The notes: generated from the sequence alone by a model not told the origin. Shown: positions 1 through 64,000, counted from the stretch's first letter. The stretch: 64,000 nt of DNA from Escherichia phage fEgEco12 (PP777464.1); one strand, 5' to 3'. Program-made: numbers and translations.

Positions 1-577
1 AGTAGGCAGAGGAAGTCTGCCGTACTTTGTAGTTTCCAAGCTCCTTTTCCATTTTGCAAATTACATCAAATGTAATCAAAAGTAATCACGCAATGATTAG
101 TACTGAATTATTACTTTCACCTTAATTACAATTACCCTTTTACCCTTCGGGGTAAAATTCCATTACCCCTTGAGGCTCCAGCAAAAAGTTGGTTAGTACT
201 CCATCCTAAATCTCGATCCTAAAAATTTTGGAGTACCTATGAAATAAAAGTTGGATCTTCGAAAGTTGAAATTTACGTTGGGACGTTTATGATTTGTGGG
301 ATATAATGATGTTTGTAATCGGGTAGTTCTCAAGAATATCAGTACTGAAAGATGAAAGAAAGTTATTGACTTTATGATTCAGTACTGTATAATGTTCTAC
401 ATAGGGTGATGAGTTGCTGCGAACAATTCATTTACTCTACCTCCTGTCGTGAGACAGTACAGAAAAGATAGTTCCTCCTGTGGTGGTACATCTTTTTGAA
501 CCTCATATGAAAATCGTAATAACAGTACTGATATTAACAGAATGGTGTCAGTACTGATTTTAATCTAAAGCATTATG

Positions 578-597
578 CCACCAGCTTGTGCTGGTGG
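578..597. other. Perfect hairpin carrying Chi octamer on both strands
   Basis: CCACCAGC-ttgt-GCTGGTGG, 8-bp stem, 4-nt loop. Confidence 0.7.
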
Positions 598-780
598 ATT
601 CCCTCTAACAGTATTCAGTACTACATGATGGTCTTCATCCTCCTAGGGTAACATAGTGAGGGCTATGATGGCAGTACTGAATACTCCCTTTCAAAAGATA
701 GATCTATGGTATAGTACTGACGGATTTTGGGTGTAGTTACCCTGGATGGATTTTGGGCGTAGATATGTCTAGCCCTCCAG

Positions 781-920
781 AAGTCTGGAAGTAAAGATGG
801 CTATCCATCTAGACGGCTAAACGGCTAGATTTCTGGATGGCTGGATGGCTGGATGGCTAGACGTTTGGACGGCTAAACGGCTAGATGGTTACACGTCTGG
901 AAGTATAGACGGCTAAATCA
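781..920. repeat. Iteron-like array
   Basis: CTGGATGG x3 in tandem (833-856); ACGGCTAAACGGCTAGAT x2; flanking AGTCTGGAAGTA copies; dyad AGATGG..CCATCT. Confidence 0.6.
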
Positions 921-1544
921 AAATTTTATTTTGTTTTTTCCAATAGTTCCCCTACCGCGTGGGGATAGTTTCCCCGCAGTATCTGGTGTTAGATTTTTCT
1001 GAATCTGGAATCATTATCTTATAAACTGGGGGCAATGTCAACGGCCTGGACGGATATTTTTAAAAATTTTTTCAGTACTGAATTTTGGGCGTAACTATGC
1101 ACCCGGTGGGCTTGAGTCTTTCTCGACTTGATGGAACTATTATACAGTACTGAAAAAATAAAGCAATACCCTGGAAGCAAAAAAGTTTTAATTAATTTGC
1201 TTGCTATCCTGGGCCGGACTATGGTACTATATTTCAGTACTGAGAAAGTGCGTTTACCTGCTAGGGTGCGGGAGTGTATCCTTTTTTTATATCTTGAATT
1301 TTGGACGGATCTTCCCACCCCCTGGGGTATCCGCTTTCTCGCGTCTATGTAGTAATTATACGCTTTTTCAGGATCAAGTCAATACCTAAAAACAAAATAA
1401 TTGAAAATAATTTAACGCGTTTAAACGGCCTGTAAAGCCCTGGAATGATTGGAATGGTGCAAATGTATAGCTTATGTGTATTAATGCGTTAGAATGCGTC
1501 TGAGGACGTTTTACGGGGTATAGGGATGATTTAGTGGATTGATT

Positions 1545-1631
1545 CAGTACTGAATAATAGTACTCCTATATAGAAAGATAGTTCCCCTGGATGATTGCAG
1601 TACTGAATAATAGTACTCCTATATAGAAAGA
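1545..1631 (+). repeat. Direct repeat, 2 x 34 bp
   Basis: CAGTACTGAATAATAGTACTCCTATATAGAAAGA at about 1545 and 1598. Confidence 0.7.
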
Positions 1632-1662
1632 AAACTATTTTAAAAGTATTTGTAGAAAGTAC

Positions 1663-1690
1663 TTGCACCGTACTGATAAAAGCGTATAAT
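1663..1690 (+). promoter_or_regulatory. sigma70-like early promoter
   Basis: -35 TTGCAC, 16-nt spacer, -10 TATAAT; consensus AAAGTACTTGCAA..GCGTATAATGTTTTACATC recurs. Confidence 0.6.
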
Positions 1691-1703
1691 GTTTTACATC
1701 GAG

Positions 1704-1722
1704 AGCGGGAACACTTCCCGCT
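1704..1722 (+). promoter_or_regulatory. 5-prime UTR stem-loop
   Basis: AGCGGGA-acact-TCCCGCT between -10 box and RBS. Confidence 0.5.
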
Positions 1723-1745
1723 ACACATTAAGAGAGATTAAAACG

Positions 1746-2108
1746 ATGGCGACTCAAATCAATAAAATCATGCTTAACCTGGTAAACTTCCGCGATGAGA
1801 TGAAAGGTCTTCCGGCTGAAACTGTAAAAATTCACATTGCAGCTTATCGGGAACTTATTGCAATGTTGCCGCTTAAGCGTGAACAATACGCCGCTACTTT
1901 GATGCTGGATTCAATGATCCATATAATGATCTCAAATGATTTGACGATGGTTTATCAGTATATGGGCGAAAATTTCGCGGTGTGTAGTAAGCCAGTACCA
2001 GGGATGGCAACAACTGAGGAATTGCACGGCTTAAACTTAAAACAAGATGCATGGGATAATATGCCTCGTTTCCTGGTATGGGCTGACAGTGGCAAAATTT
2101 ACAAATAA
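1746..2108 (+). CDS. hypothetical early protein (120 aa)
   Basis: Promoter, UTR hairpin; track ORF 1689 begins inside the -10 box, first ATG after hairpin used. Confidence 0.65.
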   Translation: MATQINKIMLNLVNFRDEMKGLPAETVKIHIAAYRELIAMLPLKREQYAATLMLDSMIHIMISNDLTMVYQYMGENFAVCSKPVPGMATTEELHGLNLKQDAWDNMPRFLVWADSGKIYK

Positions 2109-62118: not shown

Positions 62119-62120
62119 CT

Positions 62121-62414
62121 ATGTCAGTACTGTTTAAAACTAACCCAGTACTTTGGGATCAGAATGAGGATTCGGGTTTCCGTTCAATCCATGTTGAATT
62201 CAAAGGTAATACGGTGGTTGCAATCATTGCAAACAAAACTTTAGGAAACTGGACTGCACAAGTTGTTCCTATGGGATATTCTTATACATCTGATGAAGTT
62301 GCGTTTCTGGCTGAATTATATAGTCAAACACCATTCATCATCAATGTTCTAGAGCGTAGTGATAAGTTAACACATGACGAAGTAATTGACTTCCTGGCGA
62401 ACTTACATGTCTGA
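62121..62414 (+). CDS. hypothetical protein (97 aa)
   Basis: ORF track. Confidence 0.55.
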   Translation: MSVLFKTNPVLWDQNEDSGFRSIHVEFKGNTVVAIIANKTLGNWTAQVVPMGYSYTSDEVAFLAELYSQTPFIINVLERSDKLTHDEVIDFLANLHV

Positions 62415-62694
62415 TGATTCAAATCTAACAGGTTATTTTTTGCAAGAATCAATGATCAAATTCAGTGAACATTTTCCAGTACTAGATGGTGTGGAGATGT
62501 GGCATGTAAAACCACTCTTCCACACTTTCAGTAAAGAGCACAAAATGTTATTGACTGAGGCTTGTAAATCGAATAAAATATGCCAAATCAAGATTGGTGT
62601 AAATGTCTACAAAGGATTAGTCATCTTTTTTGACAACAACAGCAACTACTTTTATATTGTTAAGGAGCATTACGTTGACAAATACAAATACTAA
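62407..62694 (+). CDS. hypothetical protein
   Basis: ORF track; start moved to first ATG. Confidence 0.5.
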   Translation: MSDDSNLTGYFLQESMIKFSEHFPVLDGVEMWHVKPLFHTFSKEHKMLLTEACKSNKICQIKIGVNVYKGLVIFFDNNSNYFYIVKEHYVDKYKY

Positions 62695-63289
62695 TACATA
62701 TTTTCGTTATCTTCGCCTAGGGCTTTCCCTACGCCCAATCCGTGGTAAGTGTGATTCACTTGCTGATTTGGATTATGCATATGCATTACATTGTGATGGT
62801 GTTCAATATGTATTAGGTGACTATGGCACATTCGAAGAATCCAATGACAGTTCAGAAATTATTGCTGGTGTTGCTAACCTTAACAACATTGCCAATAGTT
62901 CTCGTCATGAAATCGTTCTTGAAATTCAGAACTTCATTGAGAAAAATACTGGCAAGCGTACATGGTCATATGTCGGTACTGATGCACAAATGTCAATCGC
63001 ATTTGGTAACGAAGATGGTTATGTAGCACAACTTATTATGGATTTTGAATCAGAAGAGAAGTTCCAAGAATACAAAGAAAAAATCATCCAATCCTTATTG
63101 CAAATGGGTATTCCTGAAGATCGTATGCCTGAAATTCAAAGCATTGATGAGTTTGTTCTTATCCCATCTGATGAAAAATATGATGCGATGTTCACAGCAC
63201 TGAACATTCCTGGTGTAGTGGTTGAGTACTTCGATGATGGTGATAGTGACATTTACCTAGATCTCGACGACGATGATGACGATGAATAA
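62675..63289 (+). CDS. acidic-tail protein
   Basis: Probable TTG start 7 nt after AGGAG; C-terminus DDGDSDIYLDLDDDDDDE. Confidence 0.5.
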   Translation: MTNTNTNTYFRYLRLGLSLRPIRGKCDSLADLDYAYALHCDGVQYVLGDYGTFEESNDSSEIIAGVANLNNIANSSRHEIVLEIQNFIEKNTGKRTWSYVGTDAQMSIAFGNEDGYVAQLIMDFESEEKFQEYKEKIIQSLLQMGIPEDRMPEIQSIDEFVLIPSDEKYDAMFTALNIPGVVVEYFDDGDSDIYLDLDDDDDDE

Positions 63290-63295
63290 TACATA

Positions 63296-63324
63296 TAGCC
63301 CGACATAAGTTCGGGCTATTTTTG
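63296..63324 (+). terminator. Rho-independent terminator
   Basis: TAGCCCGA-cataagt-TCGGGCTA then TTTTTG. Confidence 0.7.
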
Positions 63325-63335
63325 TAAGGGGAAAT

Positions 63336-63605
63336 ATGAATTACAAACATATACAATTCACTTATATGGAATTATTTAAATTACACCACAATCACCGAAG
63401 TACTAACACAATTAATAAAAATGCGTTTACCCATAAAATATGGTCAAATTATCTAGAAGAATTACGTGAGTATTTTGTTAATACTGAAATTGTCATTAAT
63501 GGAAAAAAACGAAAGATACTTAGAGTAGATAGTTTCGGTGGTAGATTAGTACTTTCATATAAATTTGATAACGACCTATTCTCTGTGGATTTGGTGAATA
63601 TATGA
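63336..63605 (+). CDS. C-family small protein
   Basis: ORF track; N-terminus MNYKHIQFTY. Confidence 0.55.
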   Translation: MNYKHIQFTYMELFKLHHNHRSTNTINKNAFTHKIWSNYLEELREYFVNTEIVINGKKRKILRVDSFGGRLVLSYKFDNDLFSVDLVNI

Positions 63606-63862
63606 ATTATAAAGATTTCCAATTAACATTCAAGTGCATTCGTGACCTAGCAAATAAAAATAATAGTATATTTTTAGAAGATACATGTAATGAAATGATT
63701 AATACTGTGCGTGAGAGGATTAAAGAAAAATTCAGTACTGTAATTATTAATAACGATCATGCAGAATTTTCAGATATAATCATTAAGCTCGATGGTAAAG
63801 TTGAGGTACAGTTCTTCACAGATTTTGGATTTACGAGTGTTCCTCTGGAGATATTCCCTTGA
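63602..63862 (+). CDS. C-family small protein
   Basis: N-terminus MNYKDFQLTF; ATGA junction. Confidence 0.55.
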   Translation: MNYKDFQLTFKCIRDLANKNNSIFLEDTCNEMINTVRERIKEKFSTVIINNDHAEFSDIIIKLDGKVEVQFFTDFGFTSVPLEIFP

Positions 63863-63870
63863 AATTAAAT

Positions 63871-64000
63871 TTGAATGATGTTCAATTCACATATAAAAAT
63901 ATATACGGTTTGTATGACATGTATCTTTTTAGTGGGAAGATTGGTGAACATGTAGAATCAAAAGAATCACCATTTATTCATAATTACTATGATTACTTAG
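63871..64000 (+). CDS. C-family small protein, 3-prime truncated by window
   Basis: Frame reads NDVQFTYKNIYGLYDMY; start unclear. Confidence 0.35.
   Translation, partial: MNDVQFTYKNIYGLYDMYLFSGKIGEHVESKESPFIHNYYDYL

Follow-up and report, generated by a model that had tools for sequence, protein, structure and literature searches.

The cyanobacterial highly iterated palindrome HIP1 (GCGATCGC) has been assigned proposed roles in nucleoid structure, methylation-linked repair, and recombination, and a periodicity of 10-90 kb has been reported for it (Xu, Lawrence & Durand 2018, PMC5861425; Elhai 2015, PMC4390886). HIP1 is the closest known phenomenon to the one described here, namely the iteration of the palindrome AGTACT in Escherichia phage fEgEco12 (PP777464.1), of which positions 1 to 64,000 were analysed (hereafter, the window). 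Like HIP1, AGTACT is a short, exact palindrome that is over-represented more than 10-fold genome-wide, lies in and between open reading frames (ORFs) and in all frames, is lineage-specific, is conserved between relatives above background, and follows no per-gene regulatory pattern. On the other hand, HIP1 is a G+C-rich octamer of a cellular genome and has a cognate methyltransferase in cyanobacteria, whereas AGTACT is a 6-8-bp A+T-rich word of a virus with no cognate methyltransferase evident. AGTACT also differs from HIP1 in occupying fixed positions in early promoters, and in doing so in a genome otherwise purged of palindromes.

Other described systems resemble AGTACT in part. The site of the nucleoid-occlusion factor SlmA, GTGAGTACTCAC (Tonthat et al. 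2011, PMC3020112), has an identical central AGTACT and is likewise palindromic and read by a dimer, but its required outer GT(R)...(Y)AC is absent in the phage, which disfavours the G/C that flanks the core of the SlmA site. Chi, KOPS, and DNA-uptake sequences are short words that selection keeps at high density for a chromosome-wide process and not for gene regulation; these words are asymmetric and oriented, whereas AGTACT is palindromic and only the related word AGTACA, in one segment of the window (island B, see below), is oriented. The PeSL cassettes of T4-type phages combine an early promoter with a stem-loop (Arbiol et al. 2010, PMC2839356; PMC4122927). The intergenic third of the AGTACT sites is found in similar units, which couple a strong sigma70 promoter to an upstream A/T-rich stretch and a GGGG...CCCC stem-loop and which separate the small ORFan genes of the hyperplastic early region. 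This likeness was judged by reading the sequence against the published definition (PMC2839356), and the stem-loops are predicted ones; the PeSL descriptions, however, do not include AGTACT, and PeSLs cover intergenic repeats only and not coding sites. The operators of phage early repressors are also comparable: they are palindromes that overlap a promoter, and a pair of sites separated by about two helical turns brackets the -35 element. Such operators are few and confined to regulatory DNA, whereas 68% of the AGTACT sites in the window and most of the 913 sites in the genome of the related phage phAPEC6 are coding.

AGTACT is a DNA-level signal maintained in density, not in position

AGTACT occurs 256 times in the window, compared with 17.3 ± 3.6 times (maximum 32) in 100 dinucleotide-preserving shuffles, a 15-fold excess. 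Its z-score ranked first among the 4096 hexamers, and the next ranks were held by its own overlapping extensions. Markov models of order 1, 2, 3, and 4 gave expectations of 17, 46, 105, and 212, respectively; only the order-4 model nears the observed count, and the 5-mers AGTAC and GTACT that enter this model are themselves inflated by the motif. A composition artefact was ruled out, because the dinucleotide shuffles, Markov orders 1-3, and the synonymous-codon shuffles described below all stayed far below 256. The enrichment had first been noticed in a sequence-only reading of the window, which put the expected rate at about 0.3 per kb (0.27 per kb by our estimate) and named di- and trinucleotide composition as the alternative. 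With 256 sites against 17, the excess is larger than that reading had stated, and composition of this kind predicts only the 17 (order 1) and 46 (order 2) sites given above. Its local counts required adjustment: 'more than a dozen' sites in the first 1.5 kb are exactly 12 (17 by position 1700), the 2-7 sites per kb given for many segments belong to a wider span of 0-10, and the enrichment is not window-wide, as two islands have no AGTACT at all (islands A and B in Table 1).

The window has a G+C content of 34.5%, its plausible genes are all on the + strand, and a simple ORF model gave 162 genes and 86% coding DNA. By this model, 174 of the 256 sites (68%) are in ORFs, distributed over the three frames as 63/43/68, and 82 are outside ORFs; the densities are 3.2 per kb in coding and 9.3 per kb in intergenic DNA. 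We compared the coding sites with shuffles of synonymous codons within each gene, which leave the protein and the gene's own codon usage unchanged. The ORFs of 1-20.9 kb contain 63 sites (15.4 ± 3.2 in the shuffles), and those of 37.6-64 kb contain 96 (23.9 ± 4.3), approximately fourfold in both regions. Because synonymous shuffles gave only about one quarter of the count, the AGTACT signal is a property of the DNA itself, superimposed on the protein code. The coding sites have no common context past cAGTACTg and are therefore independent occurrences and not copies of a repeat. This absence of shared context beyond 8 bp rules out a repeat-family artefact for the coding sites, and such an explanation holds only for the promoter cassettes.

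The unit of the signal is the exact hexamer, because all 18 one-mismatch neighbours of AGTACT were found at 0.55-2.3 fold of expectation in phAPEC6. Beyond the hexamer, the preferred form is CAGTACTG, with 63 copies in the window compared with 0.70 expected. C accounts for 45-48% of the bases at each outer flank (background 15-18%) and G for 6%, and the number of C..G flank pairs (197) was close to that expected if the two flanks were independent (188.5). An independent preference for C at both flanks, read as G on the opposite strand, is the prediction of a symmetric dimer.

The first 8 kb of fEgEco12 show 91-99% identity to Asteriusvirus (121Q, PBECO4, phAPEC6, EC.P1, CRJP21, and others). 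The matched genomes, which are jumbo coliphages of the 121Q/PBECO4/phAPEC6 type, are about 350-385 kb in length, and position 1 of the window is also position 1 of the CRJP21 and E9.1 records. For comparison over a whole genome we used phAPEC6 (MK817115; 349,999 bp assembled), which is 87% identical in nucleotide sequence to the window overall. The 350-kb genome contains 913 AGTACT sites compared with about 101 expected (9-fold). Every 5-kb bin has 5-38 sites, except for two bins homologous to the islands (0 and 2); no gap beyond the islands is longer than 2.3 kb, and the short-range spacing is slightly more even than random (coefficient of variation [CV], 0.84). The density declines from 4.7 per kb in early coding (accessory) DNA to 1.9 per kb in replication and structural (core) genes. 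Outside the early region, the AGTACT profile stays flat across gene boundaries, starts and stops alike, which rules out a gene-level role.

In 50-kb samples of core genes from Klebsiella phage RaK2 (114 vs 10.9 expected) and from Cronobacter phage GAP32 (111 vs 14.4), AGTACT again ranked first among the hexamers. No enrichment was seen in Pseudomonas phage PA5oct (1 vs 8.8, a depletion; sample, 100-130 kb), in T4 (3 vs 5.7), or in the rV5-like coliphage Eryne (0 vs 9.1; sample, 29 kb). An alternative iterated palindrome in PA5oct was ruled out, the sample having only an about 3-fold excess of TGCAG/CTGCA. In IMG/VR, 80 loci with relatives of the tail sheath were collected, and the 50 of at least 8 kb were scored: the trait was present in all 3 with a sheath identity of at least 72% and in 0 of the 47 with an identity of 52% or less. 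We conclude that, in the enterobacterial RaK2-like jumbo phages (Asteriusvirus, Alcyoneusvirus, and Mimasvirus), AGTACT is a highly iterated palindrome. Within the library of papers searched, none connects AGTACT with jumbo phages or with the 121Q/RaK2/GAP32 group, and the genome papers of RaK2, CBB, and phAPEC6 are silent on it.

Of the coding AGTACT sites of the window, 79% are intact in phAPEC6, whereas other hexamers reach 50% (p = 2e-13), and in the most diverged part, 37.6-64 kb, 68% are kept compared with 39% (p = 4e-8). Across genera, we used codon-aligned orthologues with 62-68% nucleotide identity. Here, 18 of 55 phAPEC6 sites were at the identical position in RaK2 (33% vs 16% for other hexamers) and 12 of 54 in GAP32 (22% vs 12%). 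Between genera, then, sites are protected about twofold and most positions differ, with an excess of 7-10-fold in each genus. Because most positions turn over yet every genus keeps this excess, it is density and cover that are maintained and not particular positions. These results showed that AGTACT is a DNA-level signal, kept at a density of about one site per 250-500 bp genome-wide, whose positions are not fixed. The earlier proposal that the enrichment reflects function and not composition is thus supported by the fourfold excess over shuffles, the conservation in phAPEC6, and the sharing among three genera.

Early promoters, islands, and missing palindromes

In the early region, an A/T-rich stretch, a sigma70-type promoter, and a GGGG...CCCC-type stem-loop precede each gene. 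The promoters consist of TTGACA or TTGCAA/T, a 16-bp spacer, and TATAAT, and the stem-loops read GGGGAG...CTCCCC or GCGGGAA...TTCCCGC. Among the 30 strict sigma70-like promoters of 1-20.9 kb, 24 have AGTACT at one or both of two fixed positions, in agreement with the sequence-only reading, which had placed it immediately 5' of the -35 and -10 elements. The site is at -41..-36 in 15 of the 30, as AGTAC/TTGCAA or AGTAC/TTGCAT, and at -20..-15 in 12, as AGTAC/TGTATAAT (AGTAC/TG-TATAAT), in which it gives the T of the extended -10; both placements occur together in 3, and paired sites are 20-24 bp apart. The class of the -35 element goes with the placement: promoters with TTGACA have AGTACT beside the -10, and those with TTGCAA/T have it just upstream of the -35. 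AGTACT is co-opted at these two positions, overlapping core promoter elements in the 24 promoters, yet it is not confined to regulatory DNA.

The two islands are too long to be chance gaps: at the surrounding coding density, their probabilities are 1e-8 (island A) and 1e-12 (island B). Island A has 0 AGTACT compared with 1.8 expected from synonymous shuffles and is simply without enrichment. It is overlapped by a tandem array (21091-27280) comprising 26 paralogous genes, each encoding 65-92 amino acids, whose start and stop codons overlap and whose median amino-acid identity is 35%; with paralogues only about 35% identical, a recent tandem amplification was ruled out as the origin of island A. 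Its 9 TGTACT sites may be paralogous positions. The leading hexamer of island B is AGTACA, which occurs in all three frames; the ORFs there contain 41 copies compared with 16.6 ± 3.3 in synonymous shuffles. The base after AGTAC is A in 43 cases, C in 3, G in 2, and T in 0. AGTACA is often extended to CAGTACAG, so that a CAG-TA-CAG direct repeat replaces the inverted CAG-TA-CTG. These sites have no positional preference within genes, and their conservation in phAPEC6 is marginal (51% vs 38%, p = 0.06). The pattern of island B is the same in phAPEC6, and the genes of island B are restricted to Asteriusvirus. Over 26.6-64 kb as a whole, AGTACA occurs 105 times and TGTACT 16 times. A strand-biased orientation of the Chi/KOPS type is absent for the palindromic AGTACT and was found only for AGTACA of 29.0-37.6 kb.

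The enrichment had also been set against the usual avoidance of palindromes by phages, whose genomes are known to lose them under restriction pressure, and this contrast proved sharper than first noted. The phAPEC6 genome lacks 23 of the 64 palindromic hexamers altogether (summed expectation, 459), and 27 of the 64 are below 0.2 observed/expected (9 observed vs 565 expected). CTGCAG, CCATGG, GCATGC, TGGCCA, GGTACC, and GGATCC are among those avoided, and GATC is at about 0.5-0.6 of expectation. The tetramer GCGC is missing altogether from the window (0 vs 43.5 expected), phAPEC6 (0 vs about 160-180 in 350 kb), RaK2 (0 vs 19.5), GAP32 (0 vs 46.8), and the three close IMG/VR relatives (L015, L016, and L026). 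It is at normal levels in PA5oct, T4, Eryne, and almost all of the more distant sheath relatives; a few of the latter are low (for example, L083, 1 vs 14.0, and L037, 2 vs 18.1). Among the genomes examined, complete absence of GCGC was seen only in those enriched for AGTACT. In a 50-kb sample of E. coli K-12, GCGC is at 7.1 per kb and AGTACT at 0.22 per kb, compared with 2.6-4.0 AGTACT per kb in the phage, so that the two words together separate phage from host DNA very sharply. It is conceivable, though unlikely, that they form a two-word code by which a GCGC-free, AGTACT-saturated genome is told from that of the host. A phage nuclease could destroy host DNA via GCGC. A phage protein that reads AGTACT could at the same time label phage DNA, protect it, or give it structure, and could silence those early promoters in which the site occurs. 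Segments free of AGTACT, the two islands, would then escape such control.

What may read AGTACT

One palindrome at about 10 times expectation over 350 kb, in three genera and under measurable constraint, points to a factor that reads the whole chromosome. Our tentative preference, as a possible and not yet a probable reading, is for a symmetric DNA-binding protein specific to the clade, which would mark or organise the phage chromosome and occlude early promoters. AGTACT would be read on duplex DNA by a two-fold symmetric factor, each subunit of which would recognise (C>A~T>>G)AGT. The likeliest candidate would be a dimeric DNA-binding protein, encoded by the phage, with which the phage chromosome is coated or marked, either for architecture or to distinguish it from host DNA. 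A phage factor is argued for because the trait is clade-specific, with no enrichment in PA5oct, T4, the rV5-like coliphage, or distant sheath relatives. The early-promoter sites at -41..-36 and -20..-15 are about two helical turns apart and bracket the -35. Because occupancy at both would interfere with sigma70 contacts, the same protein could time the shut-off of early transcription. A site for a nucleoid or packaging protein was among the roles suggested by the sequence-only reading; it is the best fit to the genome-wide pattern, although no such protein was found.

Several points weigh against such a protein. Pfam scans of 427 early or small proteins (138 from the window and 289 from phAPEC6) gave no sequence-specific DNA-binding domain, a negative that is limited to Pfam families and to proteins of up to 230 amino acids, and no sequence-specific DNA-binding family was found by Pfam among the neighbours of the sigma-factor gene. 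To reject single mismatches so sharply is less usual for transcription factors than for enzymes of the restriction-modification type. The two islands, 5.7 and 8.6 kb long and without any site, indicate that local absence is tolerated, and the late genes keep a 7-fold excess of AGTACT that a pure early-gene silencer would not need. A symmetric duplex reader does not explain why AGTACA is on the coding strand only in island B, and a drive of the repair type would likewise keep sites conserved.

Enzymes form another class of candidate readers. A substrate of a DNA-processing enzyme, either a nicking or cleaving endonuclease that seeds recombination-dependent replication or a T4-type topoisomerase II, is a rather unlikely explanation that nevertheless accounts for the exact 6-bp specificity with its weak tolerance of mismatches, for the two-fold symmetry, and for a density-type requirement with even cover. 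A cut at A/GTAC/T would leave the 4-nt stagger typical of type II topoisomerases. AGTACT is densest near the strong early promoters, where transcription-driven supercoiling would peak, and the clade encodes topoisomerase II subunits, UvsX, UvsW, Mre11/Rad50-like proteins, and several HNH and GIY-YIG-like (T5orf172) nucleases. However, T4 and PA5oct own the same kinds of enzyme without an iterated palindrome, no enzyme is tied to the motif, 913 cuts per genome would require tight control, and the fixed promoter positions are left without a reason. With a methyltransferase as the reader, AGTACT would be its target and the methylated site an epigenetic mark, in parallel to HIP1. This, too, is an unlikely account, and a target of phage DNA modification, as the sequence-only reading had proposed, gains little support. 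It would agree with the enzyme-like specificity for an exact hexamer and with the situation in cyanobacteria, in which each iterated palindrome goes with its specific methyltransferase (PMC4390886). Yet phAPEC6 has only two methyltransferases, a 286-amino-acid C5 enzyme (PF00145) and a 173-amino-acid Dam-family enzyme (PF05869), and an NPPY-type motif is absent from all of its other ORFs besides the latter. Characterised members of PF05869 methylate GATC. The C5 enzyme is unlikely to be the reader, because its counterpart in RaK2 gives m5CpG (PMC3622015), AGTACT has no CpG, and a 51%-identical copy is present in the rV5-like phage with 0 AGTACT in 29 kb. In RaK2, m5CpG was detected by bisulfite, and the DNA was cut only by methylation-insensitive enzymes (PMC3622015); that it behaved as Dam-methylated (PMC3622015) speaks against a mark on AGTACT. 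The window encodes a clade-conserved PF05869 adenine methyltransferase (Table 1), which is a weak candidate reader. This enzyme is not similar to the Dam-family enzyme of the rV5-like phage, so that a comparison of the two is uninformative, and no solved structure related to it was found. A third possibility, which we regard as improbable, is that AGTACT has no function and is made and kept by biased repair or gene conversion of the very-short-patch type, as in the model proposed by Elhai for HIP1 (PMC4390886). Sites are denser under weaker coding constraint (4.7 per kb in accessory early genes vs 1.9 per kb in core genes), they turn over extensively between genera with constant gain, and a restoring repair bias would also yield conservation of sites. 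But the transition neighbours that such a drive should consume are not depleted in phAPEC6 (AGTATT at 1.04 and AATACT at 1.42 times expectation), no pair of methyltransferase and mismatch endonuclease is tied to the site, and neither the fixed promoter positions and even spacing (CV 0.84) nor the complete absence of AGTACT from two long-diverged islands is explained.

The remaining accounts change the molecule that is read, the organism that supplies the reader, or the extent of the signal. A single-strand signal in RNA or single-stranded DNA could be an AGUAC(U/A) site for a ribonuclease or an RNA-binding protein, or a primase site such as CAGTA, and the palindrome would merely place this signal on both strands. 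Such a signal is very unlikely, although AGTACA is confined to the coding strand in island B (43 vs 0) and prevails on it over 26.6-64 kb (105 vs 16), and the density of AGTACT is on the scale of Okazaki fragments. Sites upstream of a -35 are outside the transcript of that promoter, the symmetric and independent flanks are as a duplex reading predicts, and the main motif has no strand choice; an excess of AGTACV over BGTACT, which a strand-specific reader should produce genome-wide, is limited to 26.6-64 kb. AGTACA itself lacks a positional preference in genes, and its conservation is marginal. Still less credit is due to a host protein, for which SlmA, titrated or activated by phage DNA, would be the obvious candidate. 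AGTACT is the centre of the SlmA site GTGAGTACTCAC (PMC3020112), and the enriched phages all infect Enterobacteriaceae, whereas their Pseudomonas relative PA5oct has no enrichment. SlmA, however, requires G1, T2, and a purine at position 3, and also A4 and G5, of the 12-bp GTRAGTACTYAC (PMC3020112). The phage sites carry no information at -3/-2 and have G at -1 in only 6%; 0 of the 256 sites fit GTRAGTACTYAC, 1 site matches 4 of the 6 flank positions compared with about 5.9 sites expected with at least 4, and T4 and the rV5-like coliphages, which share the same host, have no enrichment. Least credible of all is that AGTACT consists solely of operators of an early regulator, copied together with promoter cassettes. 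The fixed positions in 24 of 30 early promoters and the higher intergenic density (9.3 vs 3.2 per kb) fit this view. The operator half-sites that the sequence-only reading had suggested would suit this subset, about 27 placements in 24 promoters, but not the 68% of sites that are coding or the uniform spread along middle and late genes. The 174 of 256 sites in ORFs have unique contexts, and the 913 sites of phAPEC6 are in all gene classes with a flat gene-boundary profile outside the early region; operators as the sole explanation are refuted by the coding-site statistics.

Whether it proves to be the symmetric DNA-binding protein that we tentatively favour or another factor, finding the reader could show by what means an A+T-rich jumbo phage arranges its genome, labels it, or protects it, and how early gene expression is ended. 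It would also supply, for the HIP1 puzzle that cyanobacteria have posed for about 30 years, a counterpart that lends itself to experiment.

Features of the window and minor observations

Table 1. Features of the fEgEco12 window discussed in the text (positions counted from the first nucleotide of the window)
Feature	Position	Strand	Remarks
Non-coding leader	1..1680	.	17 AGTACT sites; CCWGG-containing short repeats
Early-gene region, ~54 small ORFs	1658..20900	+	138 AGTACT, 76 intergenic
Promoter with both placements	4414..4446	+	AGTAC/TTGCAA: site 4414-4419, -35 4419-4424
Same promoter (4414..4446), second site	4434-4439	+	AGTAC/TG-TATAAT, -10 4441-4446; sites 20 bp apart
Consensus -35 promoter	14072..14099	+	TTGACA, 16-bp spacer, TATAAT; AGTACT 14087-14092 is the 5' side of the extended -10 (TGn)
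Island A, no AGTACT	20863..26615	+	5.7 kb; GTAC at chance level
Inter-island segment	26616..29021	+	16 AGTACT (6.4 per kb), 12 AGTACA, 1 TGTACT
Island B, no AGTACT	29022..37646	+	8.6 kb; 43 AGTACA on the coding strand, 0 TGTACT
Compact genes of 100-280 amino acids	37647..64000	+	102 AGTACT, 98 in ORFs, frames 36/25/37
Dam-family (PF05869) N6-adenine DNA methyltransferase gene	61064..61588	+	Orthologue of the phAPEC6 173-amino-acid enzyme, clade-conserved

The CCWGG-containing repeats of the leader are numerous and include tagttcccctgg and taccctgga. The leader also contains tandem GGCTAGA/GGATGG repeats at about 809-915 and a unit of about 20 bp, CAGTACTGAATAATAGTACTCC, in two copies (1545-1564 and 1598-1617). 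An Rfam scan of the window, leader included, gave no matches.

Pfam matches among the early proteins were a ParE-like toxin domain, a DksA/TraR zinc finger, a GNAT acetyltransferase, DUF7249, DUF7247, and a weak match to endonuclease VII. phAPEC6 also encodes T5orf172/MUG113 (GIY-YIG-like) and HNH nucleases.

Among the distant sheath relatives, an uncultured one represented by a 107-kb contig (L037; IMGVR_UViG_3300044959_000303), with a tail sheath 33% identical, has an iterated palindrome of its own. TTCGAA is present in 118 copies in 23.5 kb, compared with 7.8 expected from base composition, and TCGA in 383; both occur in all three frames and in intergenic DNA. This second, unrelated palindrome suggests that the phenomenon may recur among large phages.

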